Of a DNA stretch of 64,000 bases, positions 907 through 57,581 are shown one piece after another. The stretch comes from Candidatus Aenigmatarchaeota archaeon (GTDB taxonomy: Archaea > Aenigmatarchaeota > Aenigmatarchaeia > QMZP01): the NCBI GenBank assembly GCA_026397335.1, contig JAPLVB010000048.1:136-64135 (forward strand). Reading direction: 5' to 3'. How positions within the stretch are numbered: the stretch's first letter is position 1; the number at the start of each line of letters is the position of its first letter. Both the position numbers and the translations under genes were made by a program. The notes under the pieces were generated by a model. The model worked only from the letters and a program-made list of their open reading frames with translations. It was not told where the DNA came from and ran no database searches.

Positions 907-928
907 GAAGGCGTCTCTTGACGCCTTC
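907..928. repeat. GAAG-hairpin repeat copy R1: GAAGGCGTC-TCTT-GACGCCTTC (perfect 9-bp stem)
   Basis: Seen directly. Abuts the ftsY stop codon and is preceded by agaaa. Confidence 0.8.
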
Positions 929-2042
929 ACTCCAGGAGTTCTTTCACGAACTTCCTGGGCTCGAACATCTCTATGCTTTTGTAATCCTGTCCTGTCCCGA
1001 GGAAAAGTATGGGCTTCTTTATTGCGTAAGAGACCGAGAGGATAGCTCCTCCCTTCTTGTTCACGTCTATTTTTGTAAGAACTATCGCGTCCACCCCAGC
1101 CGCTTTGTCAAAGGTTTTTGCCTGCTCCACCGCGTCATTCCCTGTGAGGGAGTCCACAACCAGAACCCTGAGGTCAGGCTTGTTAACCCTCACGACTTTT
1201 GCAAGCTCGTCCATCAGGTTCTTGTCCGTGTGCGAGCGGCCTGCTGTGTCAGCAAGGACTATGTCATATCCCTTGGTTTTTGCGAACTTAACAGCATCAA
1301 AAACCACTGCAGCGGAATCAGCCCCATACTGGTGCTTGATAACCTTCACCCCGAGCTTCTCCCCGTGCACCTCGAGCTGCTCTATGGAGGCTGCGCGGAA
1401 TGTGTCAGCTGCGGCTATAACAGGGGTGAAACCCCTGGATTTGAGGTAGTGAGCCAACTTAGCGATTGAAGTGGTTTTTCCGGAGCCGTTAAAGCCCAAA
1501 AAAATCATGCATGCAGGCCTCCCCTCCGAGCGGGACTTCTTTATTATATCTTCTATATTAACAGCGCCTTGGTTAACAACATCATAGAGGCTGTCCTCAA
1601 ACGCCTCCTTGACCAAATCCTTTACCCCTAACCTTTTCGCCTGCTTCTGGGCAAGGTTCTCCTTCAACCTCTGCTTCAGGAAGTCCACAACCTCCATCGC
1701 GACATTCGCCTCGAGCATTCCATTCTCCGTCTCGGAGAAGAACTCCTCTATATCCGAATCCGAGAGAGCACGGGCGGTGACCCTTTCCCTCACCCGCCCA
1801 AGCAGACCGGGTTTTTTGCGGGATTCTGCTTCACGGGGCTCTTGAGGAATCTCCAAAACAGGATCCCGCTTTTCAGCAGGCTTGGGTCTCTGAAATTGTT
1901 TTTTCTCTCTGACTTCAGGCCTTTCAACCTCTGGCACAGTAAGCTCTTCCTTGGAAGGCTCCTGTTCTGCTTTTTTGGTCAGCTTCTCCACGGAGTCCTT
2001 GAGCTTTTTTTTCAGAAAGTCAAACATGCACTCGCCTTCCAT
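927..2042 (-). CDS. ftsY: Signal recognition particle receptor FtsY
   Basis: SRP GTPase motifs GFNGSGKTTS, DTAGR and TKIDV, preceded by an N-terminal acidic/lysine-rich region. Confidence 0.9.
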   Translation of the reverse strand: MEGECMFDFLKKKLKDSVEKLTKKAEQEPSKEELTVPEVERPEVREKKQFQRPKPAEKRDPVLEIPQEPREAESRKKPGLLGRVRERVTARALSDSDIEEFFSETENGMLEANVAMEVVDFLKQRLKENLAQKQAKRLGVKDLVKEAFEDSLYDVVNQGAVNIEDIIKKSRSEGRPACMIFLGFNGSGKTTSIAKLAHYLKSRGFTPVIAAADTFRAASIEQLEVHGEKLGVKVIKHQYGADSAAVVFDAVKFAKTKGYDIVLADTAGRSHTDKNLMDELAKVVRVNKPDLRVLVVDSLTGNDAVEQAKTFDKAAGVDAIVLTKIDVNKKGGAILSVSYAIKKPILFLGTGQDYKSIEMFEPRKFVKELLE

Positions 2043-2088
2043 TAATTATTGTCATAATTTATATATGCCAATAAAGCCTAATGTTATT

Positions 2089-3117
2089 ATGGAGCCGCAT
2101 TCTATTGAGCTTCCCAGAAAAATCCTCATGGGCAAAGGCGTTTCCGGAAGGATGCTGGGGCTTTGCAAAGAATTAAGGATTATGGGCAGGCCGCTGGTTC
2201 TTGCTGATTCTGTAACAAAGGGGATAGCAGGCGACCGCGTGTTCCAGGACCTCAGGAATCTGGACGCGAGAATGGAGATCGTAAAGGAGGCTACAATCCA
2301 GGAGGTCGCGAGGATAAGCAGGAGGGCAGGGCCCATAGACGCTGTTATAAGCGTGGGCGGGGGTTCTGTGATAGATGTGGGGAAGGCTGTCGCATTCAGA
2401 AAACAGGTGGACTTCATATGCGTCCCTACCGCTCCCTCACATGACGGGATAATTTCAGCAACAGCCAGCCTGCTGCATGGAAGGAAAAAGGTTTCTGTCC
2501 GCGGGAAGATGCCTCTCGCCATAGTGGCTGACACAAAAATCCTGAAAAGTGCGCCAAAGCGGCTGATAGCATCCGGTTATGCTGACGCGGTCTCAAACAT
2601 AACTGCAGTGTATGACTGGAAGCTCGCAAGGAAGAAAGGCGAGTATTATTCTGAGTATGCAGCCGAGCTCGGGATGCTCGCGGCCAAAAAAGCCATGCGC
2701 TCCGCGAACCTGATAAAGCAGGGGAGCGAGCGTGGCGTTCGCAACCTCATGGAAGCCCTTATAACCTCAAGCGTGGCCATGACAATGGCAGGCTCCTCAA
2801 GGCCTGCCTCGGGAGCAGAGCATGCAATTTCTCACGTGCTTGATAGCATGGGCTCCAGGGCACTGCACGGGGAACAGTGCGGGGTGGCTTCTATAGTGAC
2901 TGCATGCCTGCAGGGTCAGGACTGGTGGAAGATAAGGAAGGCCCTTAAGGATGGGGGAGCTCCCACAACAGCAAAAGAGCTCGGGGTGGGCAGGCAGAAA
3001 TTCCTGCAGGCAATAGTGAAAGCCAGGAATTACAGGGAAAGGTACACAATACTGAACGAGAAGAATGTGGACCTGAAAAAAGCAGAAAAAGCGTGCAAGG
3101 ACACAGGAGTTTGCTGA
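2089..3117 (+). CDS. egsA: Glycerol-1-phosphate dehydrogenase [NAD(P)+] (archaeal lipid backbone synthesis, EgsA/G1PDH)
   Basis: DHQS/GlyDH-fold motifs ISVGGGSVIDVGK and PTAPSHDGI. Start moved to the ATG at 2089 (MEPHSIELP) because the longer ORF would overlap ftsY on the opposite strand. Confidence 0.8.
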   Translation: MEPHSIELPRKILMGKGVSGRMLGLCKELRIMGRPLVLADSVTKGIAGDRVFQDLRNLDARMEIVKEATIQEVARISRRAGPIDAVISVGGGSVIDVGKAVAFRKQVDFICVPTAPSHDGIISATASLLHGRKKVSVRGKMPLAIVADTKILKSAPKRLIASGYADAVSNITAVYDWKLARKKGEYYSEYAAELGMLAAKKAMRSANLIKQGSERGVRNLMEALITSSVAMTMAGSSRPASGAEHAISHVLDSMGSRALHGEQCGVASIVTACLQGQDWWKIRKALKDGGAPTTAKELGVGRQKFLQAIVKARNYRERYTILNEKNVDLKKAEKACKDTGVC

Positions 3118-3314
3118 ACTGCTGGAATGACGGCTTGTATCAATTGGGCCAAGCCGTCCATCGAACTGTGCTGGAAAGAAGGCGGCTCCGCCACCTTCAA
3201 TCGGATACCGGGCAGTAAAAAATCTTATTTATAGAACAGAATCAAAATATAAAGCTAAATAATATCTGAAATTATATAAATTGACTAAATTAATCTTTAG
3301 GTTGGGATGCAAGG

Positions 3315-4100
3315 ATGGAAGTTTTAAGGTACATAAAAAGGAAAAAGAAGCCGCGGGTTTTCAAGTACATAAAGAAGAAGAGGAAAGGCCACCCGCTTCA
3401 CTTCACCCTTATAGATCCGGACAAGCAGATGCCCGAGAAGGCCGCGGAGATAGCGGAGAGGGCAAAGAGATTCGGCTCGGACGCGATAATGGTTGGCGGC
3501 TCGCATCCCACGCAGGCAATGTATCTGGATGACTGCGTGAAGGCGATAAAGGCGAAAGTGGAACTTCCTGTGATACTTTTCCCTTCCGCGCATTCCGGGA
3601 TTTCCGCGTATGCAGACGCGATATTTTTCATGTCCCTCCTGAACTCCAAGTCTCCTCAGTATATAGTTGAGGAGCAGATGAAGGGAGCCGTCCTTGTGAA
3701 GAACTACAAGCTTGAGCCCCTTCCAATGGCATACCTTATCGTGGACTCGGGAGAGACAACAAGCGCTGCATGGATGGGTGATGTGCGGCCCATCCCGAGA
3801 GAGAAGCCTGAGTTTGCAGTGGGCTATGCCCTTGCCGCCAAATACTTCGGTATGCGCTTTGTCTACCTGGAAGCGGGCTCGGGGGCAAAGCAACCTGTCC
3901 CTGATGAGATGATAAAAACCGTGAAGCACAGCATAGAGCCCGAGATGCTGCTGGTAGTGGGCGGCGGCATAAGGGACGGGAAGACCGCAAGGGAAAAGGT
4001 GAAGGCAGGCGCGGACATAATTGTCACGGGAACTGTTGCAGAAGGCAAGGATGAGAGCAAGCTAATGGAAGTGATACAGGCGGTCAGGGGGAAGAAATGA
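3315..4100 (+). CDS. Geranylgeranylglyceryl phosphate synthase (PcrB/GGGPS family)
   Basis: Full-length similarity to the PcrB/GGGPS TIM-barrel family (FTLIDPDK, IMVGGS, VVGGGIR). It lies immediately downstream of G1PDH. Confidence 0.8.
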   Translation: MEVLRYIKRKKKPRVFKYIKKKRKGHPLHFTLIDPDKQMPEKAAEIAERAKRFGSDAIMVGGSHPTQAMYLDDCVKAIKAKVELPVILFPSAHSGISAYADAIFFMSLLNSKSPQYIVEEQMKGAVLVKNYKLEPLPMAYLIVDSGETTSAAWMGDVRPIPREKPEFAVGYALAAKYFGMRFVYLEAGSGAKQPVPDEMIKTVKHSIEPEMLLVVGGGIRDGKTAREKVKAGADIIVTGTVAEGKDESKLMEVIQAVRGKK

Positions 4101-5278: not shown

Positions 5279-5350
5279 TGATTCACTTAATAAATGTGCG
5301 GGAATTTGTACCGTTATAAAATATAAATGCATAAACTAGATTATTAGAAG

Positions 5351-5388
5351 GAAGGTGGTTGTAATTAGTTGGTTAGGAACCACCTTCA
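5351..5388. repeat. GAAG-hairpin repeat copy R2: GAAGGTGGTT-N18-AACCACCTTC followed by aattag
   Basis: Seen directly; ends 19 nt upstream of the gatD ATG. Confidence 0.7.
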
Positions 5389-5407
5389 ATTAGACATCGT
5401 GAATGGA

Positions 5408-6769
5408 ATGTATGCAAAAAAACTCCAGTCGATTCTTCGAAAGAAAAAAATCAGCACAGGCGAACGTATCGCGGTAGAGAAGGAGAACAGGAAGTATGAA
5501 GGCCTTCTCATGCCCAGGATAGAGCTCGGGGATCAGGAGTCGCTTGTTCTGAAGCTTGACAACGGCTACAATATCGGGATAAGGTTCGGGCCGGGAGTTA
5601 AGATAGAGAAGTCCCGCACTCATGAGCCGGAGGAAGTGAAGGAGGAGGAAGAGTACGAGCTCGGGAAGACGAAAAAGAGATATCTTGAGGTCAGCTTTGA
5701 CCCCAAAAAACCGCCAGTCTGCCTGGTAACAACAGGCGGGACAATCTCAAGCAGGGTGGATTACAGGACAGGCGGGGTTTATGCAGTCAGCAACCCCAAG
5801 GAGCTTCTGCACAATGTTCCTGAGCTGGCGGAAATAGTGAACATAAGGGAGATGGTAACTCCTTTTACAAAGATGAGCGAGGATATGGATTGTTTTGACT
5901 GGAGAAAAATAGCAGAGATTGCTGCAAAAAAGCTGAACTCGGGAGACCAGGGAGTGGTAATCGGCCATGGAACAGACACGCTCCATTTCACGGCAGCCGC
6001 TCTTTCATTCTTCCTGAGAAACCTTTCCAAGCCAGTGGTTTTGGTTGGCTCGCAGCGCTCTTCTGACCGCGGCTCTTCTGACGCGGGAATGAACCTTATA
6101 TGCGCGGCCCGCGTGGCTGTGAGCGATATTGCTGAGGTTGGAATTTGTATGCACGGGGAGCCGGACGACTCGTACTGCCTTTTCCTTCGCGGGACGAAAG
6201 TCAGGAAGATGCACACCTCAAGGAGGGACGCGTTCCGCCCGGTAAATGATTTGCCTCTCGCCAAAGTCTGGCCTGACGGGAGGCTGGACAAGATAAACCC
6301 TGAGCAGAAAAGAAGGAGCGAGGGAAAGGTGGAGCTTGATATAAAATTCGAGCCGGATATAGCTATTCTAAAAGCCTACCCGGGCTCAGACCCGGGAGTG
6401 ATTGATTATTACGTGAGAAAAGGGTACAAGGGTTTTGTGATAGAAGGGACTGGACTCGGGCATGTCCCCACATTTGCAAAAAAATCCTGGATATCCGTAA
6501 TCAAAAAACATTCCGAGCAAATCCCTTTTGTGGTTGCTCCCCAGGCGCTTTACGGAAGGGTTAATACTGATGTTTACACTAATCTCAGAATCCTCTACCA
6601 CGAAGCGAAAGCGATTCCCGGGGAGGACATGCTTCCGGAGACAGCTTACGTGAAGCTCGGGTGGGTGCTTGGTCACACAAAGAACATGGAAAAAGTTCGG
6701 GAAATGATGCTAACGAATTACGCAGGGGAGATAACGCCCAGAAGCCTGCCTGAAACGTATTTGTATTGA
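5408..6769 (+). CDS. gatD: Glutamyl-tRNA(Gln) amidotransferase subunit D
   Basis: Asparaginase-like core (TTGGTISS, GHGTDTL) after a GatD-specific N-terminal domain. Start set at MYAKK (5408) because a palindromic repeat occupies 5351-5388. Confidence 0.85.
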   Translation: MYAKKLQSILRKKKISTGERIAVEKENRKYEGLLMPRIELGDQESLVLKLDNGYNIGIRFGPGVKIEKSRTHEPEEVKEEEEYELGKTKKRYLEVSFDPKKPPVCLVTTGGTISSRVDYRTGGVYAVSNPKELLHNVPELAEIVNIREMVTPFTKMSEDMDCFDWRKIAEIAAKKLNSGDQGVVIGHGTDTLHFTAAALSFFLRNLSKPVVLVGSQRSSDRGSSDAGMNLICAARVAVSDIAEVGICMHGEPDDSYCLFLRGTKVRKMHTSRRDAFRPVNDLPLAKVWPDGRLDKINPEQKRRSEGKVELDIKFEPDIAILKAYPGSDPGVIDYYVRKGYKGFVIEGTGLGHVPTFAKKSWISVIKKHSEQIPFVVAPQALYGRVNTDVYTNLRILYHEAKAIPGEDMLPETAYVKLGWVLGHTKNMEKVREMMLTNYAGEITPRSLPETYLY

Positions 6770-6792: not shown

Positions 6793-6856
6793 GAAGTTGG
6801 CGAAGCCAACTTCTCCGTTAAGTCGCGAATAGCGAATGAAGGCGTGAAACGCCTTC
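6793..6856. repeat. Two tandem repeat copies, R3 GAAGTTGGC-GAA-GCCAACTTC and R4 GAAGGCG-TGAAA-CGCCTTC
   Basis: Seen directly. R4 ends 35 nt upstream of the HD-gene ATG and is followed by tatatcaaat. Confidence 0.8.
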
Positions 6857-6891
6857 TATATCAAATCGCGCATTGTTGCAAGGCGAAAGGC

Positions 6892-11670: not shown

Positions 11671-11772
11671 GGGATTTTCTTGGATTTCGGGTTTAAAAAG
11701 TTAACTATGTAAGGAAAAAGCCTGTTTTTACATAGGGGTATATAAATAGGTTCATATATAAATATAGTTTGT

Positions 11773-11794
11773 ATTGGTGATTGAAGGCGGCGAA
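11773..11794. repeat. Degenerate repeat copy R5: GAAGGCGGC-GAA-GCCGGCTTTT
   Basis: Seen directly; right arm imperfect. Confidence 0.5.
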
Positions 11795-12002
11795 GCCGGC
11801 TTTTCTCCAAGAATCTCCCGGGCGCCTTATAAGGGCGGCTCTTAGTTCTCTCCTTAGCACATGTGAATATGGATACTTACATATCGGTAGAGCATGGCAG
11901 GGTACATACAGCCTACCAGTATCTATCGAGTACGAACGAAAGCGAGAGCAATATCCCCACCTATAGCGGAGCCCCCGCCTCCCGATTGGAACGTGCAGTC
12001 GC

Positions 12003-14279
12003 ATGCGGTCGGGTGGAGGTATGGATAATACGCAAATCAAGGTTGATGAGCCTAGGAAGAATGAATGCGAAGCTTACCGGGTAGTTTTGCTGGACGGGGA
12101 GAGGAAAAAAGGCGAGATCAAAGACGTCAGGATTGTAAGGCTGGGCGGCCCAGAAAATAGGTATGTGAAAAGGGAGCCAGGGAAGGACAAATCGGCGGAA
12201 GGCGCTGCGCAGCGCCTTCAATCGAAGGTCGCGGTTCCTGAAATTCCAAGGGCAGCGGCTGTATCCAAAAAAAAGGGCGGCGTGCGGGTAATAGATTTGA
12301 AGAAGGCTTCCGAGAAGGAGGCCGAGAAGGCGAAAGCGAAAGCGGATTCTAAGGCAGAGGAAGAGAAGCGTCTCAGGCGCGATTTGAACAATTCCATAGC
12401 AGAGGGCTCATTCACAACCGCATCAAGCAGCATAGTAAGCTCCTACTCAACCCCCTTTGCGCTGGCGCTTAATGCCTCCAACTCTGAAATCGGGATTCTG
12501 AATTCCGTCCAGAACCTTGCCGGAATTCTTTCGCAGCTTCCTGGCGCAAGGCTCACAAAAAGCATGACCAGGAAAAAAATCTGGGTAATGTGCACCATCC
12601 TTTCCAGGCTGTTCCTGATACCGCTTATATTCATAGGGCTCTTCGCACCTTCCACAGAGATATGGCTGCTGATAATTCTCCTTGGGATGGTTGGCTTCTT
12701 TAGCAGCATGAGAGGGCCCGCATGGTCAAGCATGATGGGCGACCTCGTGCCTGTGGAAAGGAGAGGAAGATACTTCGGCAAAAGGAACATGATAATAGGG
12801 TTTGCAGGCATGGTTGCCACGCTTGGGGCAGGAGCTGCCGTATTCTACTTTGGGTTTCCTGTGATTTTTGGAATAGCCGTTGTCCTCACTTTCATATCCA
12901 TAATATTCTTTTTGCGCATAAGAGAACCAGAACTTAAACAGGAGAGAGAATATCACTACAGGCTGCATTTCCACCCGAGCGATTTAATCTACCAGATAAA
13001 GACGAACAGAAATTTCGCAATCTTCACCATCTACATGACTGTGGTGAACTTTGGTGTCAATATAGCGTCACCCTTTGCTGCTGTATATATGCTCAAGAAC
13101 CTGGATATAGGTTACGCATGGTTTGCAGTGCTGGTTACAATAGGCGCTCTGGCCCAGCTGCTTTCAATGAAATACTGGGGAAACAGGTGCGACAATTACG
13201 GGAACCGCAAGATCCTTGTGATATCCGGAATCCTGATATGCTTCGTTCCCCTAGGCTACATGCTTTCCACGAATGTTTTCCATCTTATACTCCTGAAGGT
13301 ATATGACGGGTTCGTATGGGGCGCTTTCGACCTGGTGGTGTTCAACTACCTGCTTGCCGTCACGCCTTCAGAGAAGAGGCCCGGATTCGTGGCAAACCAC
13401 AATTTCATTACAGGTGCGGGAACTGTCACAGGGGCGTTATTCGGGGCATTCCTGGCCCAGCAGTTCGAAACAAGCAGCTTCATGCTGTTCTATGGCCTCC
13501 AGCTGGTATTCCTGATATCCTTCATCCTCAGGCTAAGCTCCATATCCTTCCTGTCCAGGATAGCAGAGGTGGAGAAGAAGGAGAGCGAGCGCATTCCTGT
13601 GAGATATGTGTTCTGGGACACGGTTGCAATAGGCCCTGCAAAGGGAGTGGAGCATGCCGTGAGCAGCGCCTTCCGCTACCCTTACGGGGTTAAGATTAAA
13701 AGCAAGCTCGGACTAAATAATAACAGAAAAATAAAGCTCTCAACAAAAAAATTTGAGTCAGGGAACTCGCAAAAGCAGCGAATGAAGGTGAACGAAAGAA
13801 AGAAGGTGGAACTGGAGAACGAGACACCTTCAGGCAATAAGCCACCTTCAATCACAAATCACGTTCCAGCGAAGGTGTTTGATCATATAGGTGTCCTTCC
13901 GGTTAAAAAGCAAAAGATTGCGGGCGGATTCAGTCAAGAAAATGGGGTGTTTGAAATGGTATTAGGCAATAGGCAAAAACAGAAATCTGATGATAGAAGC
14001 GAATATGTTGAGCTTGGACTTGAGAGGCAGGCTCCCAAAACAGCGAAGATAGTGGTTCACCATCTCCAGAGGTTCTCGGAGACGGACAAGATTGTGAAGA
14101 GTATCCGCGCGAAAAACATTGTTTTCGTGGGGCTCAAGACCATGAAGCAGACCAATCTGGACGAGCTCAAGCAGGCAGTCGCAAAGATAAACAGGGCATG
14201 CATAGAGAACGGCTCGAACCTTTCGCTCGTGGAGGAGGAGTGGCTGATAATCACGCCTCAGACGGCGGCGATTGTTTAA
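12003..14279 (+). CDS. Fusion ORF joining a multi-pass (about 10-12 TM) transporter-like membrane domain to a SepF-like (DUF552) cell-division domain. The N-terminal ~187 codons are doubtful and a plausible alternative start is at 12564.
   Basis: The TM-rich core carries a GDLVPVERRGRYFG segment that resembles an MFS loop 2-3 motif, but this is weak. The last ~80 aa (KIVVHHLQRFSETDKIVKSIRAKNIVFVGL...WLIITPQTAAI) match the SepF core pattern. The linker at 13784-13855 contains a degenerate repeat copy. An in-frame ATG at 13782 could start a stand-alone 166-aa SepF if an unseen frameshift or stop exists. Confidence 0.5.
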   Translation: MRSGGGMDNTQIKVDEPRKNECEAYRVVLLDGERKKGEIKDVRIVRLGGPENRYVKREPGKDKSAEGAAQRLQSKVAVPEIPRAAAVSKKKGGVRVIDLKKASEKEAEKAKAKADSKAEEEKRLRRDLNNSIAEGSFTTASSSIVSSYSTPFALALNASNSEIGILNSVQNLAGILSQLPGARLTKSMTRKKIWVMCTILSRLFLIPLIFIGLFAPSTEIWLLIILLGMVGFFSSMRGPAWSSMMGDLVPVERRGRYFGKRNMIIGFAGMVATLGAGAAVFYFGFPVIFGIAVVLTFISIIFFLRIREPELKQEREYHYRLHFHPSDLIYQIKTNRNFAIFTIYMTVVNFGVNIASPFAAVYMLKNLDIGYAWFAVLVTIGALAQLLSMKYWGNRCDNYGNRKILVISGILICFVPLGYMLSTNVFHLILLKVYDGFVWGAFDLVVFNYLLAVTPSEKRPGFVANHNFITGAGTVTGALFGAFLAQQFETSSFMLFYGLQLVFLISFILRLSSISFLSRIAEVEKKESERIPVRYVFWDTVAIGPAKGVEHAVSSAFRYPYGVKIKSKLGLNNNRKIKLSTKKFESGNSQKQRMKVNERKKVELENETPSGNKPPSITNHVPAKVFDHIGVLPVKKQKIAGGFSQENGVFEMVLGNRQKQKSDDRSEYVELGLERQAPKTAKIVVHHLQRFSETDKIVKSIRAKNIVFVGLKTMKQTNLDELKQAVAKINRACIENGSNLSLVEEEWLIITPQTAAIV
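12198..12219. repeat. Repeat copy R6: GAAGGCGCTG-CG-CAGCGCCTTC (perfect 22-nt palindrome) followed by aatcg
   Basis: Seen directly. It lies inside the annotated N-terminal extension of the ORF at 12003-14279. Confidence 0.75.
13784..13855. repeat. Degenerate repeat copy R7 inside the transporter-SepF linker: gaaggtgaacgaaagaaagaaGGTGG...CACCTTC...ccaccttcaatca
   Basis: Near-identical to 24904-24950 (gaaggcgaacgaaagaaagaaggtgcacagcaccttcaatcg). Confidence 0.6.
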
Positions 14280-19168: not shown

Positions 19169-20461
19169 TTATTCCCCGTATTTGCGCCTGGATTTGTATC
19201 TCATATCCAGCTGGTAGCTTATTTCTGTCTGGTATTCCCCGGCTTCTTTGGCGGCTTTGAATGCGTATTTTTCTTCCTCCATCATTATCTCAGGCATATC
19301 AGGAATTATCAGTTCAAAACTTGTGATACCAAGTTCCGAATCCAGATCTACATCAGAAGGATAACCCAGACTTGTTTTGAAATCCCAAAGAAGCTTCCCC
19401 GTCTCAGCGGAGACACACCGCAGTTTGCAGTCCCATGAGCCGAAATATATCTTCCCGTTCCAGGCACCTGCGCCCATGGCTTCATATTCACTTATTTTTA
19501 CTTTCCAGAGCAGCCTCCCGTCAAGCCTTAGGGCATAGAAATTCTTGTCGCAGGCGCCGAAGTATACATTTCTGCCATAAACAACAGGGCAGGCATAGAG
19601 TATGTTCCCTGTCTGGAACTTCCATAACAGCCGGCCAACCTTGGAGACAGCATAGAAGTTCTGGTCATATGAGCCGAAGTAGATGACGCCTTCATGCACA
19701 GACGGAGTAGATATCACTGCGCCTCCTGTCCTGAATTTCCAAAGAAGCTCCCCATCATGGGAAAGCGCATAAAGGTGGTGGTCCCTGCTACCGAAATAGA
19801 TGCCGTCCCTATCGATTGCTATGCCCCAGTTTATCTCATCTGAAGCGGTGAACTTCCACAGAAGTCCGCCCTGCAAGTTCAGGGCGTAGAGGTTATGGTC
19901 CCATGAACCAAAGAATATGTTGTTATTATAAACGGCCGGGGTCATTATCGAAGCTTTTGCGTAAAATCTCCATAGCTCTCTTCCAGTCATTGCATCCAAC
20001 GCATAGAATATGCCATTCTTTGAGCCAAAATAGAGCACGCCTTTATGGGCAATCTGGCAAAATAATTTGCTTCCTGTTTCAAATCTCCACATTTCTTTCC
20101 CGTCTTTGGTAGACACGGCGTACATTATGCCGTCAAATCCCCCGAAATATACAATACCATTTTCTAATGCGGCCTTGTCACCTGCCAGTGGTCCGTTTGT
20201 CTTGAACCTCCATATCTCCTCTCCGGTTTCCGAATCCACTGCATAGAATTTGTGGTCGCATGCCCCAAAATAGGCTATCCCTTCATGAATAAGCACCCTG
20301 CAATCAATGCTGCCGCCTGTGCGTGTGCCCCAGAACACATCCCTGTCAGACTTCTTCAGAGTGGACCATTGCGCAACCTCTTCAATCTCGCCGAATGTTT
20401 TCCTGTCTATCCTGAATGTCGGCGTGGTCCCAGAAAGGTTGGCTGTTTCCAGATACCTCAT
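19169..20461 (-). CDS. PQQ-like beta-propeller repeat protein
   Basis: About 8 repeats of the YFGSxDxxLYALdxxtGxxlWkF type. Confidence 0.75.
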   Translation of the reverse strand: MRYLETANLSGTTPTFRIDRKTFGEIEEVAQWSTLKKSDRDVFWGTRTGGSIDCRVLIHEGIAYFGACDHKFYAVDSETGEEIWRFKTNGPLAGDKAALENGIVYFGGFDGIMYAVSTKDGKEMWRFETGSKLFCQIAHKGVLYFGSKNGIFYALDAMTGRELWRFYAKASIMTPAVYNNNIFFGSWDHNLYALNLQGGLLWKFTASDEINWGIAIDRDGIYFGSRDHHLYALSHDGELLWKFRTGGAVISTPSVHEGVIYFGSYDQNFYAVSKVGRLLWKFQTGNILYACPVVYGRNVYFGACDKNFYALRLDGRLLWKVKISEYEAMGAGAWNGKIYFGSWDCKLRCVSAETGKLLWDFKTSLGYPSDVDLDSELGITSFELIIPDMPEIMMEEEKYAFKAAKEAGEYQTEISYQLDMRYKSRRKYGE

Positions 20462-22824: not shown

Positions 22825-22855
22825 TGTTTGCACCGCTCAAAATTTCTTTTTGCTC

Positions 22856-22874
22856 GAAGGCGTGAAACACCTTC
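22856..22874. repeat. Repeat copy R8: GAAGGCG-TGAAA-CACCTTC (loop as in R4; one C.A / G.U position)
   Basis: Seen directly; lies 31 nt upstream of the V-PPase ATG on the minus strand. Confidence 0.7.
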
Positions 22875-23077
22875 TTTCCAAGCTTTGGGTTAAAATTGGA
22901 GGTTAGGCTTATAAAAGTTACGGCAGGGGACGGATTCTTAAACAGATTTCTTCCTTGCGTTCCAGTAGACAAAGCTCCCCAGAATTAGAATCATGAGTAA
23001 AGAGAGCCCGTAAAATACAGGTGGGTTCGCAATGAGCATCCCCACAAGGTCTGTTTCTCCTGCCATGGGAATCACAA

Positions 23078-24584: not shown

Positions 24585-24661
24585 TTTTTCACGGCTCGCT
24601 TGTATAATTAATTTGTAATATTATATGGGTTAGGCCTAATTTAAAGGTTCGAAAATGGAAA

Positions 24662-24682
24662 GAAGTCGGCTCTGCCGGCTTC
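24662..24682. repeat. Repeat copy R9: GAAGTCGGC-TCT-GCCGGCTTC followed by aatcgaaattcg
   Basis: Seen directly; one U.G position. Confidence 0.7.
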
Positions 24683-24822
24683 AATCGAAATTCGTAACCG
24701 ATAGGAGTCAGCCATGAAAATATGTTTTTGTGTAACCGACAAGGAGTTAAATCACATCAAAAACCAGTATGGGCCAAAACATTTATATACCCTTGTGCTA
24801 TAATTATATTAAATAAATTTTT

Positions 24823-24894
24823 AGCGACTGAGCGATTGAAGTCGGCTTCGCCGACTTCGGTCTAAATTCCGGATTCAACAGTCGCTTCAATCGA
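24823..24894. repeat. Nested repeat copy R10: outer AGCGACTG/CAGTCGCT and CGATTGAAG/CTTCAATCG arms enclosing GAAGTCGGC-TTC-GCCGACTTC
   Basis: Seen directly; the outer arms are perfect reverse complements. Confidence 0.8.
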
Positions 24895-24903: not shown

Positions 24904-24957
24904 GAAGGCGAACGAAAGAAAGAAGGTGCACAGCACCTTCAATCGAGAATCGCCTTC
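24904..24957. repeat. Nested repeat copy R11: outer GAAGGCG...CGCCTTC enclosing GAAGGTGC-ACA-GCACCTTC, with aatcg following both
   Basis: Seen directly; ends 22 nt upstream of the MC1 ATG. Confidence 0.8.
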
Positions 24958-24979: not shown

Positions 24980-25288
24980 ATGGCGAAAAAGAGAAGGGCT
25001 TCCTCAAAGAAGTACTACGTTCTCAAAAGCGGAAGGAAAGTCTCAATCTTCACAGGAAGACAGCCAAGGCAGGCTGCTTTGAAGGCAGCAACCAGGGGAT
25101 TCACAGACATAAGATTGAGGGAAAGAGGACGCAAGAACAAAGACAGGACATATACAGTCCATGTTTTCCAGGGATCAAGGAAGAAGGTCAGCCTTCCAGC
25201 ATCAAGCAAGGTTGACTGGCTGCCAGCACAGGTCTGGAAACCGACTGTGAAGAAAGTCCGAGTTGAAAGACTGAAAACAATAAGATAA
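24980..25288 (+). CDS. Chromosomal protein MC1 family
   Basis: FTGRQPRQAALKAATRG...IRLRERG...VHVF aligns closely with the Methanosarcina MC1 core (FTGKQPRQAALKAANRG...IRLRERGTKKVHVF). Confidence 0.85.
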   Translation: MAKKRRASSKKYYVLKSGRKVSIFTGRQPRQAALKAATRGFTDIRLRERGRKNKDRTYTVHVFQGSRKKVSLPASSKVDWLPAQVWKPTVKKVRVERLKTIR

Positions 25289-26978: not shown

Positions 26979-27047
26979 AATATCATTTTATGTGTTGTAT
27001 ATACTATTTATTAACCTCAAAAACACTTCACTCATAAGGCGAGGCGT

Positions 27048-31064: not shown

Positions 31065-31259
31065 GTATTAAATTACGTTACACTTATTTATAAAGGTTAC
31101 GTTTTAGTTACACTTTATAAATTAATGTTACATATAAAGTTACAAAATATACATTCTGTAACGTTTTCTATAGAGAACATCTTTTGGAAGGTACTCAATA
31201 ATCAGGAGGCTAGCTTCCTAAGCTAAACTACCCCAGAAAACGCGATTTGCTCTTGGAAC

Positions 31260-31631
31260 CTAAGCGGCGACTTTCTTCTCTTCCTTTCCGGGCTTTGGCT
31301 GCTTCTTCTTATCTTCCTTTGCTGCGTTCTCCTCTATCTGGGAGAACTTCTTTATCATTGCCTCCACATTATGCGCTATGTCCCAGCCGTCATCCGTGAG
31401 TATGACCTTCTTTATGCGGCCCTGCTTATCGAATTTAACTATGCCCAGGTTCCTGAAAGCGTTTAGGATCTTTATTGTGTGCGAATACGTACAATCAGAT
31501 TCCTTGGCCAGAATAGTCGCATAAACGGGCTTATCCTTGCCGGTTTTCAGGCCCATGAGAATCCTTGCCGGCTTCTCCCTAAGAAACAAATCCTCTAACA
31601 TCCGGTTTTGTGGCATAGTTCTCATCTTCAA
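31260..31631 (-). CDS. Winged-helix DNA-binding protein with a lysine-rich C-terminus
   Basis: wHTH-like segment YATILAKESDCTYSHTIKILNAFRNLGIVKF. Confidence 0.45.
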   Translation of the reverse strand: MKMRTMPQNRMLEDLFLREKPARILMGLKTGKDKPVYATILAKESDCTYSHTIKILNAFRNLGIVKFDKQGRIKKVILTDDGWDIAHNVEAMIKKFSQIEENAAKEDKKKQPKPGKEEKKVAA

Positions 31632-31945
31632 TTTTCACAATAATTTTATGTATTTGTATTATATAAATGTTTCGTTTCTTATTTCATATAATATAGTTTA
31701 TAAAGTATTCTTTATTTATAATATAATAAAATAGATATTATATAAAATAGTTATTTAATTAGAATTATTAAAATATAGTTATTTTAATATATATTATTAA
31801 GTAGTATATTTTTAATCCTCACGGCCAAAGTGAGAGTTCCTTCCAAGAATGGCCCAATAAGGTGAGAGAGATGTTTCACGAGAGAATAGGGTCAATACAT
31901 ATCGGTTTATATAATAATCTCCCTAAGGGCGTAGATTCTAGGATA

Positions 31946-33013: not shown

Positions 33014-33499
33014 TTACACATCATCTAAAGAATTCCGCTTTAAAATTTGCTTTACCCTTTCGCTATCAATTTCCTTGAAAGACGGATTACCTAGTGTAAT
33101 TTTTTTTAATTGCCCATTTTCCAATTTTGCATATTTACACTGGATAACTACAGGAATAAATCCTATAACATTGGGATAAGATTTCGTGTGACTAGCAATG
33201 TCCTGAAACTCTTCCAAGAAAGTTATAAAATTATCTTCTTGCCCTGCATAAATAATATTAAGTAGACAGAGGCTATCAGAACTGTCTTTACCCGGATTTG
33301 GTTTTTCAAAGCATTCTACTTGTTCTGGATTGAGAACTTTTACGCGTGGTTTAGTAGCAAAGTAATCAAGCCAAGTATCAATCATATACTCAGGAGTATA
33401 CAAATTCATTTTGTACATTAACTCTTTATGCGCATCGCTTCCAAAAAGGGTTGAATAGGGACATTTACCCTTTTTTCCAAAGTAATTATTCTTACCCAC
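33014..33499 (-). CDS. Hypothetical protein
   Basis: ORF only. Confidence 0.4.
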   Translation of the reverse strand: MGKNNYFGKKGKCPYSTLFGSDAHKELMYKMNLYTPEYMIDTWLDYFATKPRVKVLNPEQVECFEKPNPGKDSSDSLCLLNIIYAGQEDNFITFLEEFQDIASHTKSYPNVIGFIPVVIQCKYAKLENGQLKKITLGNPSFKEIDSERVKQILKRNSLDDV

Positions 33500-33621: not shown

Positions 33622-33770
33622 TGGGGCCATCGAGATTTGAACTCGAGTCTAGAGCTGATTTGCGAAAGAAGTCGGAATTGCGTTAGAAGGTGCTCATGCG
33701 CCTTCATTCTCACGTTCCGACTTCAAACGTCCCGAAGCTCTGATGCTAGACCAAACTACACCATGGCCCC
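33622..33770 (-). tRNA. tRNA-Pro(CGG) with a 74-nt intron at the canonical 37/38 position. Exons are 33731-33770 and 33622-33656; the intron is 33657-33730. CCA is not encoded.
   Basis: Hand-folded. Acceptor GGGGCCA/TGGCCCC (7 bp) with discriminator A. T-arm TCGAG-TTCAAAT-CTCGA. Anticodon stem AGAGC/GCTCT with loop TTCGGGA (U33, anticodon CGG, G37). The D-arm is imperfect (GUGU/GCAU with wobbles). The 5-prime half resembles archaeal tRNA-Pro (GGGGCC.TGG.GTAG..TGGTCTA). Confidence 0.65.
33669..33724. repeat. Nested repeat copy R12 forming the tRNA-Pro intron: outer GAAGTCGGA/TCCGACTTC enclosing GAAGGTGC-TCAT-GCGCCTTC
   Basis: Seen directly; flanked by cgaaa and aaacg. Confidence 0.8.
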
Positions 33771-33781
33771 GATTCACGAAA

Positions 33782-33803
33782 GAAGGTGTCTCTTGACACC
33801 TTC
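33782..33803. repeat. Repeat copy R13: GAAGGTGTC-TCTT-GACACCTTC (same loop as R1; one compensatory C-G to T-A change)
   Basis: Seen directly; 11 nt upstream of the tRNA 5-prime end and preceded by cgaaa. Confidence 0.8.
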
Positions 33804-33818
33804 ATTTTAAGGTTCGAA

Positions 33819-33836
33819 GGTATCGCTTGCGATACC
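33819..33836. promoter_or_regulatory. Perfect palindrome GGTATCGC-TT-GCGATACC in the divergent spacer between the tRNA and the aminotransferase gene
   Basis: Seen directly; function unknown (candidate operator). Confidence 0.2.
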
Positions 33837-35686: not shown

Positions 35687-37009
35687 TCAGTGAACATACC
35701 CCTTCTTCCCCTTTATATAGTCCTTTGAGATTCCAGAGCCATACTCATTCCCTGTTTCCCCATAGTTTTTGAATTCTGTCTCAGGCTTTCTTTCTTCTAC
35801 CCTTTCTTCGCCTCCCGAGGGCCACGTTACCTCGAAAATATTTTTTGACATTTCGGGTTCTATGTTCAGCCGGGACTGGTAGCTCAGGCCTGTGGGGAAT
35901 TTCCACAGGAGCTTTCCTTCTGTTGTTACAGCATAAAAATTGCAGTCCCATGAGCCGAAATAGATAATATTGCCTGAAATGACCGGTATGGACACAACAA
36001 TCCCGTTTGTTGCGAACTTCCAGAGCATTTTCCCCGTTGCAATATCAACAGCATAAATGTTGTTTTCCTCGCTTCCAAAATAGGCCGCATTGTTGAAAAC
36101 GATGGGTGTGGACGCTATATATTTTGTTGAAAATTTCCACAAGATTTCTCCTGTCGGTATTTTAACTGCATAAAGATTGTTATCTCTCGAAGGGACAAAA
36201 AGTACGTTTTTGTGCAATACAATGGAATTGCTGATGCAGTCTTCTGTCCTGAATCTGAACACAAGCTGCCCGGATGTGTTTACGCCGTACACATTGTTGT
36301 CCATGCTCCCGAAGTATATGACATTGTCAAGAGGAATGGAATTATACCGTATGCTATTTTTTGTTGGGAATTTCCATAAAAACCTGCCTTCCAAGGTCAA
36401 TGCATAGAAATTGAAGTCCTCGGAACCTATATACAGGACATCCTTGTAAACCATCGGATAGGCGCATACAGGGCCGGCTGTCTTGAACTTCCACTTCAGC
36501 CTTCCGTTAAGTCTAAGACAGTATACATTTCCATCTTTTGCACCGAAATATATGGAATCCCTATATACGCATGGCTTTGACAATATTTTATCACCCACGC
36601 TGAATTTCCACAGGAGATTCCCTGTGTTTATATCCAATGCGTATAAGTTCCCGTCAAATGAGCCAAAATAAACCACGTTTTCTGCCAGCATGGGATGGGA
36701 GCATACGCCGAATGTATTGAATTTCCATACAAGGCTACCATCTTTTGATATTGCGTAGAAATTATTGTCGCACGCGTTGAAATAAATCGTGTTGTTATGT
36801 ATGATGGCTTCGCTCCAAATGCTTCCTCCTGTTTCTATATCCCACTCCGCGTTAATCCTGCGTCTTTTCATTTCCATTACGGCGTATTCTATCTGGATAT
36901 TCTCGAATTCTGGACTAAGAGTAAAGCTGGAGCTGGCCCGCATAGAATACTCTCTACCAGAAAGGTACTTTTCCATATGTAGTATTTTTATTGAAAGCTT
37001 TATTAACAA
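35687..37009 (-). CDS. PQQ-like beta-propeller repeat protein, paralog of the gene at 19169-20461
   Basis: Same repeat signature (YFGS.D.NLYA...G.LLWKF). Confidence 0.75.
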   Translation of the reverse strand: MLIKLSIKILHMEKYLSGREYSMRASSSFTLSPEFENIQIEYAVMEMKRRRINAEWDIETGGSIWSEAIIHNNTIYFNACDNNFYAISKDGSLVWKFNTFGVCSHPMLAENVVYFGSFDGNLYALDINTGNLLWKFSVGDKILSKPCVYRDSIYFGAKDGNVYCLRLNGRLKWKFKTAGPVCAYPMVYKDVLYIGSEDFNFYALTLEGRFLWKFPTKNSIRYNSIPLDNVIYFGSMDNNVYGVNTSGQLVFRFRTEDCISNSIVLHKNVLFVPSRDNNLYAVKIPTGEILWKFSTKYIASTPIVFNNAAYFGSEENNIYAVDIATGKMLWKFATNGIVVSIPVISGNIIYFGSWDCNFYAVTTEGKLLWKFPTGLSYQSRLNIEPEMSKNIFEVTWPSGGEERVEERKPETEFKNYGETGNEYGSGISKDYIKGKKGYVH

Positions 37010-39141: not shown

Positions 39142-40557
39142 TTAGGATTTCTTCTTGTCAGGCTTTTTTGCAGGCTTGGATTTTTCCTTATCAGGCTCCT
39201 TGATAGATGGAAGTTGTGAAGCAGCTTCTTTCGAAGGTCGTTCCTCTTCGTGCTCTATCTCATCCTCCAGCTCCTCTTCCTTCTCTTCCACCGTTTCCCT
39301 GTTCGCGTAGTTTTTCACGGAGAGCTGGCCACCCGCGAACCTGCTGCTGGCCGCGAACTTTGCCATGAACGTGCTGAAAATAACAGTGAGTATTATCACA
39401 ACCACGACCATGTTCATTATGCTGGCCGCGGCAGCGCCGAGGTTTGCTGCTATAAGGGCGGCAGCCACTATGGGAGCCATTGCAGCCGCGTCTATTCCCC
39501 TTGGGGCCACGAAGCTCATGACGAATCTCTCCTGTTTTGTGTAGTTCTTCCTTTCCTTGCCAAGAATGATGTTTACAAACAGCGGCCTTGCAAGCACGAT
39601 GGCTATGAAGAAAAGCAATATCGGGATGATGTCGGATAGGCCGAAAGTGAGAGTCACCTGCGCCCCAAGGAATGTGAAGACTGCAATCCTCAGCATCTCG
39701 GAGAAGTGGTCGTCAAACCTCTTCACATCATCCTTCTCCTGGAATCCCATGTCTCCTACTATAAGCCCACAGATAGCCACGGCCAGGATTCCGGAGCCGC
39801 CCACGTATTCGGACGCGGCATACGTGAGGAGGGCTATGGAGAGCATGAGCAGGACCGTGTAGTCTTGGGCCATCCTTTTTACAAGCTTGGAAAAACCCAA
39901 CCCGAGAATTATTCCCGCGCCAACTCCAGCCACCATCATCAGCACGAATTTGGAGAAGTAAGCCATAGGCTCGATTATGGCTCCGGGCTGGATTGACACG
40001 AAGTCAAGGAAGACAAGGGGTATCAGAATGCACATGGGGGAGTTGAAAACCGCCTCTGTTTTTAGCATGGTCATAACGCGCCTGTAATCCTTGTCCAGAA
40101 TGGAGTCGAAAGTGAATATTATCGCGTCCGCGGTTCCGCTCAGGACGCCTCCGAGAAGGAGCGCGAACACCCAGTCGATGCCGAATATGAAATGTGCCGC
40201 AACTCCGAGAATTATTGTATTAAAAGCAACCCCCAATACCGCGAACTTGACCGAAATTCCGGAGGTCTTCCTGAAGGAGCGGAGTCCCACGTTGAACATT
40301 CCCGCGAACACTATCATTATCAGGGCAAGTATCCTGAGGAAGTCGGGGACGGCTCCCATCGCGCTTATGCTGACAGGCTCTATCTTCATGTATTGGGCTA
40401 TAAATGGGTTTCCCAGAATAGTTGGGCCCAGCAGGAGCCCCAGAAGTATCAGGAATATGCTGTCGGGTATATTCCTCTTCTTGAAGAAGTTTGCCAGCAG
40501 CACGCCAAGCCCGAGCAGTATGGCGAAATATGTTATAGCTATTAAGGCATCGCTCAT
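39142..40557 (-). CDS. Na+/H+ antiporter (CPA1/NhaP type) with an acidic, lysine-rich C-terminal tail
   Basis: 12-13 TM layout with CPA1 motifs (FFLPPIIF-like, ILFGGV..SGTADA). Confidence 0.85.
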   Translation of the reverse strand: MSDALIAITYFAILLGLGVLLANFFKKRNIPDSIFLILLGLLLGPTILGNPFIAQYMKIEPVSISAMGAVPDFLRILALIMIVFAGMFNVGLRSFRKTSGISVKFAVLGVAFNTIILGVAAHFIFGIDWVFALLLGGVLSGTADAIIFTFDSILDKDYRRVMTMLKTEAVFNSPMCILIPLVFLDFVSIQPGAIIEPMAYFSKFVLMMVAGVGAGIILGLGFSKLVKRMAQDYTVLLMLSIALLTYAASEYVGGSGILAVAICGLIVGDMGFQEKDDVKRFDDHFSEMLRIAVFTFLGAQVTLTFGLSDIIPILLFFIAIVLARPLFVNIILGKERKNYTKQERFVMSFVAPRGIDAAAMAPIVAAALIAANLGAAAASIMNMVVVVIILTVIFSTFMAKFAASSRFAGGQLSVKNYANRETVEEKEEELEDEIEHEEERPSKEAASQLPSIKEPDKEKSKPAKKPDKKKS

Positions 40558-56959: not shown

Positions 56960-56980
56960 GAAGTAGGCTACGCCTACTTC
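56960..56980. repeat. Repeat copy R16: GAAGTAGGC-TAC-GCCTACTTC
   Basis: Seen directly; 41 nt upstream of the S28e ATG on the minus strand. Confidence 0.75.
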
Positions 56981-57046
56981 GCGTAAGGCTTTCGCCTCAC
57001 AACACTTAATTATTTGAAATTTTAACTTTTCGACTTAACGGAGAAG

Positions 57047-57104
57047 GATTCTGGAGTGAAGGCGAATTTGAGTTGGAAGTCGGCTATGCCGACTTCGTTC
57101 TTTC
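57047..57104. repeat. Nested repeat copy R14: outer GAAGGCG/CGCCTTC enclosing GAAGTCGGC-TAT-GCCGACTTC
   Basis: Seen directly; lies between the S28e and L7Ae genes. Confidence 0.8.
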
Positions 57105-57164
57105 GAACGCCTTCTTTCTAAGTTCCTGCGCCTACTTTAAATAAGATTTGTGTTTTGCAAATCC

Positions 57165-57527
57165 TTATTTCATGAGCGACTTGACTTTCTCCGCAATCTC
57201 GTTCACCAGCTTCTTCGCGTCACCTTCCTGCGCAATTGCGATTGATGAGGTGGGAACGTCTATCCCGCATGCCTTGCCTAGCTCAACCTTTGAAGGCACA
57301 AAAACATACGGCACTTTCTTCTCATCGCATAGAACCGGAAGATGCATAAGGATCTCCGGAGGCGTGACGTCCTCGGCCATTACAACAAGCTTTGCAATTC
57401 CCCTGTCTATCGCCTTGGTGGTCTCGTTTACGCCTTTCTTGATCTTTCCGCTGGATTTCGCGACTGTAACGGCTTCGTAAACCTTTTCCACAAGATCCTT
57501 CGAAACCTTGAATTTCACGAATGTCAT
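57165..57527 (-). CDS. rpl7ae: Ribosomal protein L7Ae (K-turn binding)
   Basis: Full-length match ([28 protein letters not shown]...LP.LC.EK..PY..V.SK..LG.A.GI). GGAGG lies 7 nt upstream of the ATG. Confidence 0.9.
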
Positions 57528-57560
57528 ATCATCCCCTCCTAAAAGGTACGATTTTGGAAA

Positions 57561-57581
57561 GAAGGCGACTTCGTCACCTTC
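57561..57581. repeat. Repeat copy R15: GAAGGCGAC-TTC-GTCACCTTC followed by aaac
   Basis: Seen directly; 33 nt upstream of the L7Ae ATG on the minus strand. Confidence 0.75.

Follow-up and report, generated by a model that had tools for sequence, protein, structure and literature searches.

A 64,000-nucleotide (nt) stretch of chromosome from a Candidatus Aenigmatarchaeota archaeon (contig JAPLVB010000048.1 of assembly GCA_026397335.1; hereafter the window) carries a family of short hairpins whose arms open with GAAG and close with CTTC. [quoted passage not shown] The units have spread to new sites within the genomes of one Aenigmarchaeota clade. They lie in intergenic spacers and untranslated regions (UTRs), as well as in tolerant loops and tails of proteins, where they are read in frame and in one orientation only. 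They land preferentially in or beside existing copies, including in the loops of their hairpins, giving rise to two- and three-tier palindromes, and some copies have been retained for a long time with their pairing maintained.

The window holds 14 perfect hairpins with a stem of at least 8 bp and a loop of 2–6 nt, nine of which open exactly with GAAG and close with CTTC. Pairing in these nine never runs outside GAAG/CTTC, and the other five carry five different tags. In sixty dinucleotide-preserving shuffles, GAAG hairpins averaged 0.03 and never exceeded 1, and hairpins of any kind averaged 5.1, which bears out the claim from which the analysis started (the original prediction, made from the letters of the window alone) that there is a real dispersed hairpin family in this archaeal genome. 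Tolerating one mismatch or wobble brings in the hairpins at 3178, 22856, 24662, 33686, 39210 and 57561. A set of 45 hairpins was drawn from the window and related loci and oriented by their flanks, and a covariance model was built from 36 copies. At E<0.01, the model finds 16 distinct sites in the window (beginning at 895, 3166, 5342, 6826, 11771, 12186, 13790, 22844, 24650, 24826, 24910, 33674, 33770, 39198, 57064 and 57549), and two perfect hairpins score more weakly (6793, E 0.03; 56957, E 0.67), making 18 copies altogether in 64 kb where at least 16 had been predicted. All of the hairpins quoted in the prediction are present, the pair at 907–928 and 33782–33803 differing by exactly one compensatory pair as stated, and those at 6838 and 22856 sharing the centre GTGAAAC.

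The basic unit is about 40 nt long and consists of a purine-rich 5′ flank, the hairpin GAAGKYGNC/GNCRMCTTC, and a 3′ flank. The G+C-rich stem of 8–10 bp has the consensus GAAGGCGTC/GACGCCTTC and varies mainly at positions 5, 6, 8, and 9; the loop of 2–4 nt is variable in sequence and is seen either way round relative to the same flanks (TCTT or AAGA). The flanks are conserved, as had been proposed, and non-palindromic: they read ..TGGAAA or ..GAAAGAAA on the 5′ side (in fuller form ..(GAT)TCTGGAAA) and AATCG(AAAA) on the 3′ side, with the consensus ..TGGAAA-hairpin-AATCGAAA. An outer CGATT/AATCG closing helix was ruled out as a general feature, since only 46% of its cells are paired. When the 36 copies are aligned, 96% of the inner helix is paired, both sides have changed in four of its nine pairs, and one stem position shows all four Watson–Crick pairs, a covariation count that is circular because the copies were chosen as hairpins. 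A non-circular test was made with the pattern GGAAAGAAGG-N8-14-CCTTCAATCG, which fixes the flanks and five stem bases and does not presuppose pairing. Scanned over the JGI metagenome collection, it matched 24 loci; in 11 of these, the unconstrained interior supplies four to five more perfect or near-perfect pairs, with several different stems, and the other 13 are chance matches. With the covariance model, the 11 family loci yield further copies, whereas the approximately 95 kb of the 13 chance loci yield none. The same pattern gave no match in the virus collection.

Comparison of the window with four to eight related genomes, syntenic and about 75–80% identical to it in DNA, reveals copies gained and lost at orthologous sites, the presence/absence differences that the original prediction had proposed looking for. 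The spacer between gatD and the HD gene is about 22 nt long in the relative L001 versus about 137 nt in the window, where it holds two copies (some 115 nt more). GatE of L001, and of L001 only, has a clean 10-codon insertion, ANGREKASAT, which is one copy of the element (44.6 bits) in a protein otherwise 81% identical to that of the window. The N-terminal extension of an MFS protein has a 42-nt in-frame copy in the window and, 60 nt further on, its own 21-nt in-frame copy (seven additional residues) in L001; the latter genome also has a 75-nt three-tier palindrome at window position 12003–12009, where the window reads GCATGCG directly followed by GTCGGG. With two copies, the L7Ae–S28e spacer of the window is 246 nt long; that of L006, with one copy, is 105 nt, and the copy-free one of L016 is 31 nt. 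Ribosomal protein L24e has 65–66 residues in the window and L006, 100 in L016, and 76–77 in L021 and L022, and the extended tails of L016 and L022 contain a model-matched copy. In L006, the ArgRS open reading frame (ORF) reads through a two-tier copy into the DALR domain. Between the TATA box and the L7Ae leader, there is a forward copy in L016, reverse copies in L050 and L052, and none in the window or L006. S28e and L24e are only 4–10 nt apart in the window and L016; the same spacer holds a long-loop copy in L021 (2065–2127, GAAGGCGTT...AACGCCTTC-TTTCCAGAATC) and GAAGTTGC-GAA-GCAACTTC in L052 (1027–1128). All sampled genomes with an L7Ae of at least 81% identity to that of the window carry the family, with model matches in L001, L006, L016, L021, L022, L049, L050, and L052 (one or two copies in L021 and L022). 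The model has no match in the samples of L002 (GatD 65% identical), of CP070801 (L7Ae 75% identical, 41.6% G+C), of the Borrarchaeota loci, or of L020, a 1.05-Mb Aenigmatarchaeota genome sample.

The nested outer stems noted in the original prediction are real. Thirteen of the 45 hairpins (29%) lie inside a perfect outer helix of at least 6 bp, with spacers of 5–14 nt per side, compared to 1.8% when the downstream flank is shuffled, and eight of the 13 outer helices themselves open with GAAG. The results are two- or three-tier nested GAAG...CTTC palindromes of 55–75 nt, among whose outer stems are GAAGGCG/CGCCTTC, GAAGTCGGAA/TTCCGACTTC, and GAAGTCGGA. Seven composites fold as two- or three-tier hairpins with energies of −11.6 to −18.1 kcal/mol as DNA (z scores of −3.4 to −5.5); those of the window are at 13784–13849, 24904–24957, 33668–33724, and 57058–57114. 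Two features go beyond the original prediction, the insertion of copies into the loops of other copies and their in-frame insertion into genes. The first is seen directly in the L7Ae–S28e spacer: the window and L006 have a simple GAAGTAGGC hairpin, but in L052, where the ortholog is recognised by its stem and conserved downstream flank, the loop holds AAAAAGAAG-GAAGGCGTC-AAGA-GACGCCTTC-GGGCAA. With a complete unit in this loop, there is direct evidence that copies become nested when one inserts into the loop of another already in place. Composites are also copied as units, because the copies at 13784 and 24904 have 24 of their first 25 nt in common, across outer arm, spacer, and inner arm, and one direct dimer is common to the non-homologous loci L024 and L036. 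The sub-family GAAGGCGAC-TCTT/AAGA-GTCGCCTTC likewise recurs at unrelated places, namely the ArgRS of L006, the L24e of L016, and L036.

Fifteen of the 18 window copies lie outside ORFs. The three in genes are at 12198 (MFS N-terminus), at 13784–13849 (linker between MFS and SepF domains), and at 39210 (tail of a Na+/H+ exchanger); across the clade, the hosts of in-frame insertions are GatE, ArgRS, L24e, the MFS protein, and the Na+/H+ exchanger tail. Each of the seven unambiguous coding copies points forward, whereas non-coding copies occur in both orientations. The forward orientation is also the more readable one: summed over three frames, a copy has 0.89 stops forward and 1.75 in reverse, where composition predicts 2.03, and 15 of 36 copies are open in all three frames forward versus one of 36 in reverse.

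A few copies are old, and their pairing has been kept through compensatory changes at two orthologous sites. In the L7Ae–S28e spacer, the window hairpin GAAGTAGGC/GCCTACTTC is matched in L006 by GAAGCAGGC/GCCTGCTTC, a double compensatory change. The hairpin in the 5′ UTR of L7Ae is kept in all seven genomes (7/7), with three of nine pairs changed on both sides, and its four non-Watson–Crick pairs are all U.G in the mRNA sense. It sits in a conserved structured leader (window 57528–57612, minus strand; also L006, L016, L022, L049, L050, and L052) with the layout AGACCUGAAG ... GAAG hairpin ... CUUC-UUUCC-AGAAU ... CUUAGGAGGGGAUG, in which the 5′ ACCUGAAG can pair with CUUAGG. The UUUCC after the hairpin can pair with the GGAGG of the Shine–Dalgarno ribosome-binding site. 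The arrangement suggests that this copy has been taken over for the control of L7Ae expression, possibly as an autoregulatory leader. A search by eye of the seven orthologous UTRs for a kink-turn as an L7Ae-binding site (C-stem, 3-nt bulge, and tandem G.A) gave no consistent kink-turn.

These two sites, together with the many copies in 5′ UTRs and operon spacers, support a different reading, in which the host uses the hairpins as RNA modules for regulation or stabilisation (for example, protective hairpins 5′ or 3′ in mRNAs, or translational operators); they would be under selection in the transcript, their likeness reflecting a shared binding protein and not mobility. We consider this unlikely. 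Most copies are not positionally conserved at 75–80% DNA identity, the non-coding ones lie both ways round relative to transcription, and some are inside coding sequence; nesting and the presence of dimers at unrelated loci require copying. There is no general RNA-sense signal: the imperfect pairs, read in the forward orientation set by the flanks, are mostly C.A (about seven) versus G.T (two), counts that were read from the copy tables and comprise too few cases over all copies, and the wobble-versus-mismatch counts show an RNA-sense bias for the L7Ae 5′ UTR copy only. The original prediction had concluded from compensatory variation that a folded strand is under selection. Its premise stands, in that pairing is kept, the two orthologous sites included; the conclusion is only partly safe because the copies are recognised by their pairing and because arm-to-arm correction within a DNA palindrome would give the same pattern.

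For the mobile element that we favour, we suggest that an enzyme acting in trans would recognise the folded hairpin strand and cut and join it at the invariant GAAG foot, by analogy with the HUH/Y1 enzymes, that is, TnpA(REP), or REP-associated tyrosine transposase (RAYT), for REPs and the TnpA of IS200/IS605 for the ends of insertion sequences (ISs). After insertion, most copies turn over quickly, and the few that are retained probably act in mRNA, the L7Ae 5′ UTR copy being the clearest case.

Several observations weigh against a mobile element. Searches of Pfam matches and gene tables and by tblastn found no transposase or nuclease candidate, either in the window or close to any of some 60 copies spread over about 183 kb of element-bearing DNA sampled from relatives, although the tblastn result is a weak test. 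The specific link to a RAYT or IS200/IS605 TnpA gene made in the original prediction found no support, as there is no such gene in the window or in the 183 kb. A RAYT-sized ORF at 33014–33499 (161 amino acids, no Pfam match) that adjoins two copies has no HUH motif, and a NurA-like ORF between two copies in L029 and other copy-adjacent ORFs are ordinary housekeeping genes. The covariation count on the 36-copy alignment is circular, as described above, and the genome-wide copy number is an extrapolation from 64 kb of this genome. No pair among the genomes compared is close enough to offer a clean empty site that would define the exact ends, the target, and any target-site duplication; at the strain level, L007–L015 and L017–L019 are identical to L006 and L016 and yield no clean empty sites. 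Three junctions have short direct repeats (GAAGG and AATCG at the MFS site, AATCG also at the L016 leader site, and GGCGAA at the GatE site), which are only suggestive, the genomes being too diverged for them to be decisive. Recent activity is not demonstrated, because no two long window copies are identical.

That no transposase was found also suits an origin in replication or repair, through fold-back or template switching at GAAGG-like words, with arm-to-arm correction keeping the arms perfect and flipping the loops. The loops do occur both ways round against the same flanks (TCTT/AAGA), as in hairpin-mediated inversion; the empty counterparts of the MFS, L24e, and GatE sites already hold GAAG(G); and the arms match perfectly as DNA, the wobbles favouring neither strand overall. 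Fold-back would, however, copy arbitrary local sequence, and yet unrelated loci, different genomes, and metagenomes share the same 9-bp stems and the same non-palindromic flanks TGGAAA ... AATCGAAA, and whole units of 40–75 nt arrive as clean insertions. We therefore regard such an origin as improbable.

We give little credence to the proposal that a chromatin or replication protein uses the hairpins at the DNA level, as sites of binding or structure (cruciforms). MC1, a possible candidate for that protein, prefers distorted DNA, and the elements are symmetric palindromes with an invariant GAAG/CTTC foot, three of which precede the MC1 gene; on its own, however, the proposal does not explain dispersal, nesting, or insertion into coding sequence. 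As a secondary use of mobile elements, it is compatible with our interpretation. Ordinary transcription terminators, or chance hairpins in purine-rich sequence, can be dismissed almost entirely: the reverse orientation does place T-rich TTTCC/TTTCTTTCG after the hairpin and a simple terminator scan flags one copy, but the T-rich tail exists in one orientation only, chance predicts 0.03 hairpins against the nine observed, and archaeal termination depends on oligo-T and not on hairpins. In agreement with the original prediction, the terminator reading fails on the positions of the copies, none of which separates two convergent genes and many of which precede start codons or sit within operons or ORFs; nor do the copies follow a T-tract rule.

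Some narrower readings were also rejected. The stem as a mimic of the Shine–Dalgarno or anti-Shine–Dalgarno sequence (GAAGGUGAC/GUCACCUUC) fits the GGTG sub-family only, and we take the likeness as a coincidence because the consensus is GGCG. An integron attC site, which has RYYYAAC...GTTRRRY cores after gene cassettes beside an intI gene, was rejected on the GAAG/CTTC ends and the core housekeeping neighbours, the only tyrosine recombinase being in a copy-free island, and CRISPR and dif sites were ruled out on sequence and context.

REP-type repeats, like the RAYTs that accompany them, are seen as a feature of bacteria, and the miniature elements described from archaea are larger, IS-derived MITEs (transposable elements of the miniature inverted-repeat type). 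GTAG- and CGTC-tagged REPs, including REPs within ORFs, are known from bacteria (PMC3733652), and Quentin et al. (2018) found that archaea have only IS200-type TnpA, the REP-associated RAYT subclasses being bacterial (PMC6006769). RPEs are the classic in-frame palindromic insertions, and MITEs have been described in Sulfolobus, Halobacterium, Haloquadratum, and a few more archaea (both reviewed in PMC10969869); a recent tool paper records hairpins of a generic kind from a few archaeal genomes but defines no families (PMC12306157). Our literature searches on Aenigmarchaeota or archaea combined with palindromic elements or RAYT found no described tagged hairpin family in DPANN.

The GAAG family resembles REPs, BIMEs, and REPINs (REP doublets) in being made of short G+C-rich imperfect palindromes (20–40 nt) with an invariant foot tetranucleotide, dispersed mostly outside genes, in forming clusters, dimers, and composites, in compensatory variation, in occasional copies within ORFs (PMC3733652), and in lineage restriction. 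The copy number is also similar in kind, as REPs number dozens to hundreds per genome and there are 18 GAAG copies in 64 kb. The differences are that the REP tag, GTAG or CGTC, stands at one end of the palindrome, whereas GAAG/CTTC forms the first four stem pairs and so occupies both arms; that REPINs are inverted doublets with a short spacer, whereas here there are nested palindromes (13/45) and direct dimers; and that the host is a DPANN archaeon, with no RAYT found in the window or the 183 kb. The REP resemblance drawn in the original prediction thus holds for behaviour (gain and loss, recurrent sub-families, dimers, and nesting) but does not establish membership of the REP/RAYT system, the tag and the composite form being different and no RAYT having been found in the DNA searched. 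RPEs are alike in being in-frame palindromic repeats in essential genes that add short hydrophilic loop or tail segments, in occurring between genes as well, and in having no known cognate transposase. They are set apart by size and host (about 100–150 bp in Rickettsia versus 20–75 nt in an archaeon), and only a minority of GAAG copies are in genes (3/18 in the window). Archaeal MITEs share non-autonomy, dispersal, palindromic structure or terminal inverted repeats, and presence or absence between relatives. MITEs are, however, usually 70–800 bp long with a recognisable IS origin and target-site duplications, whereas the GAAG element is much smaller and the whole unit is an inverted repeat; no parent IS for it was seen. 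The comparison with the palindrome-associated transposable elements (PATEs) of Haloquadratum, also made in the original prediction, fails on size and architecture, since PATEs are several hundred nucleotides long with IS1341/TnpB-type ends and a 3′ palindrome, whereas the units here are 20–75 nt with no tnpA or tnpB nearby. For IS1397, ISKpn1, and ISPpu9/10, the hairpin loops of existing palindromic repeats are insertion targets, as they are here; in those cases, a full IS enters a REP, whereas in our case what inserts is a further copy of the miniature element itself.

The copies are described here in their order along the window. The first (895–940, plus strand; 43.6 bits, E 8e-11) has a perfect 9-bp hairpin at 907–928, GAAGGCGTC-TCTT-GACGCCTTC, and lies in the spacer past the ftsY stop codon (927) and before the next minus-strand gene. 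An open frame of at least 288 codons occupies 1–864 on the minus strand and runs off the start of the window; therefore, hairpin 907 is between co-directional genes and not at a convergent junction. The element at 3166–3210 (plus; 42.7 bits), with hairpin 3178–3198, GAAGGCGGC-TCC-GCCACCTTC, and flanks CTGGAAA and AATCGG, separates two plus-strand genes, one for an Fe-ADH-family protein (putative glycerol-1-phosphate (G1P) dehydrogenase) and one for PcrB. A marginal long-loop copy at 5342–5399 (plus; 18 bits, E 0.006), with a 10-bp stem GAAGGTGGTT/AACCACCTTC and a 17-nt loop at 5351–5387, lies between a conserved promoter and the start of gatD, a position at which L001 has a different short hairpin plus an additional long-loop copy upstream. 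The gatD–HD spacer contains a bare hairpin with a perfect 9-bp stem and no assigned strand (6793–6813, GAAGTTGGC-GAA-GCCAACTTC; E 0.03) and an element at 6826–6868 (minus; hairpin 6838–6856, GAAGGCGT-GAA-ACGCCTTC; 27.9 bits) that is not in L001. A degenerate copy at 11771–11815 (minus; GAAGGCGGC-GAA-GCCGGCTT; 22.9 bits, E 2e-4) is located downstream of a conserved promoter. L001 has a copy after the same promoter (6156–6201), on the opposite side of TCTCCCGGGCRCC and in the opposite orientation; the two could be independent hot-spot insertions or the product of a local inversion.

The in-frame copy at 12186–12231 (plus; hairpin 12198–12219, GAAGGCGCTG-CG-CAGCGCCTTC; 34.4 bits) lengthens the N-terminal extension of the MFS protein by 14 codons (GKDKSAEGAAQRLQ). 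The two-tier copy at 13784–13849 (plus; 27.5 bits, z −4.2), with outer stem GAAGGTG/CACCTTC, spacer AACGAAAGAAA, and a degenerate inner hairpin at 13802–13831, is in the ORF that links the MFS and SepF domains. This ORF, at 12003–14279 on the plus strand, runs from the MFS transporter into the SepF domain without a stop codon between them, through a linker of about 90 codons that contains the two-tier element; it may be a real fusion, a read-through made by the insertion, or an assembly error. The element at 22844–22886 (minus; hairpin 22856–22874; 23.2 bits) is upstream of the true start of the H+-pyrophosphatase, whose Pfam match begins at residue 60. The best-scoring copy of the window (24650–24694, plus; 49.1 bits), with hairpin 24662–24682, GAAGTCGGC-TCT-GCCGGCTTC, and flanks TGGAAA and AATCGAAA, occupies the divergent spacer between a putative AMP phosphorylase gene (Glycos_transf_3/PYNP_C) and the MC1 gene. 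It is followed upstream of MC1 by an element at 24826–24870 (minus; hairpin 24838–24858, GAAGTCGGC-TTC-GCCGACTTC; 41.2 bits) and by a two-tier copy at 24904–24957 (plus; 41.2 bits, −15.8 kcal/mol, z −5.3), GAAGGCGA-ACGAAAGAAA-[GAAGGTGC-ACA-GCACCTTC]-AATCGAGAA-TCGCCTTC, which ends 23 nt before the MC1 start codon. Three copies thus fall within 400 nt upstream of the gene for this chromatin protein (24980–25288, plus strand; Pfam E 1e-20), itself found here in a metagenome-assembled genome labelled as a DPANN archaeon.

The two-tier copy at 33668–33724 (no assigned strand; 28.7 and 23.8 bits on the two strands, z −5.4) has outer stem GAAGTCGGAA/TTCCGACTTC and inner hairpin 33686–33705, GAAGGTGC-TCAT-GCGCCTTC. 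Close by, at 33770–33815 (plus; 44.4 bits), an element with hairpin 33782–33803, GAAGGTGTC-TCTT-GACACCTTC, is upstream of a hemL-like aminotransferase gene; a perfect 8-bp hairpin outside the GAAG family (GGTATCGC-TT-GCGATACC, 33819–33836) begins 16 nt past it. The second simple in-frame copy (39198–39240, minus; hairpin 39210–39228; 26.8 bits) codes for ..RPSKEAASQLPS.. within the charged tail at the C-terminus of the Na+/H+ exchanger, whose Pfam domain stops at residue 397. In the L7Ae–S28e spacer, there is a bare hairpin with no assigned strand at 56960–56980, GAAGTAGGC-TAC-GCCTACTTC, with orthologous copies in L006 and L052, and a two-tier copy at 57058–57114 (minus; 37.6 bits, z −5.5), with outer stem GAAGGCG/CGCCTTC and inner hairpin 57076–57096, GAAGTCGGC-TAT-GCCGACTTC, that is not in L006 or L016. 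The last copy, at 57549–57593 (plus; hairpin 57561–57581; 44.1 bits), is the one kept in the 5′ UTR of the minus-strand L7Ae gene in seven genomes.

The window itself is core archaeal chromosome of about 47% G+C, encoding FtsY, the Fe-ADH-family protein, a PcrB-family protein (geranylgeranylglyceryl phosphate (GGGP) synthase-like), ornithine carbamoyltransferase, GatD/GatE, H+-pyrophosphatase, MC1, a class-III aminotransferase (HemL-like), Nre, and L7Ae–S28e–L24e; the GatD loci nearest to its own are labelled Candidatus Aenigmarchaeota. No tRNA or tmRNA gene was found in the window, no Rfam family matched anywhere across it at gathering thresholds, and Rfam matches around two element clusters were at chance level only (E>0.3). 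Two paralogous PQQ-like beta-propeller proteins are encoded on the minus strand at 19169–20461 and 35687–37009. Positions 27000–32000 form a low-G+C island (39–44%) in which the covariance-model scan finds no GAAG element. It holds the only recombinase gene of the window, a tyrosine integrase (30486–31064, minus), together with PolB-exonuclease-like fragments (27048–27545 and 28133–28729), several ORFs without a family match, and AT-rich perfect palindromes at 31721–31743 and 31766–31789, and is probably an integrated foreign element.

In its most far-reaching form, which we put forward tentatively and regard as rather doubtful, our proposal is of a self-targeting miniature palindromic element of DPANN, moved in a way not so far known from archaea, perhaps by the first archaeal RAYT-like domesticated single-strand hairpin transposase or by transposase-free host replication or repair, that remodels essential proteins (GatE, ArgRS, L24e, and transporters) in frame and supplies mRNA hairpins such as that of L7Ae. 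DPANN genomes are small and streamlined, and the GAAG family would offer a handle on the mobilisation of single-strand hairpin DNA in archaea. It would also preserve, as a natural record, how peptides have been inserted in frame into essential genes of reduced genomes, and serve as a strain-typing and assembly-relevant repeat for uncultured organisms, and it draws attention to the L7Ae mRNA, whose conserved and structured 5′ UTR is built round one copy.

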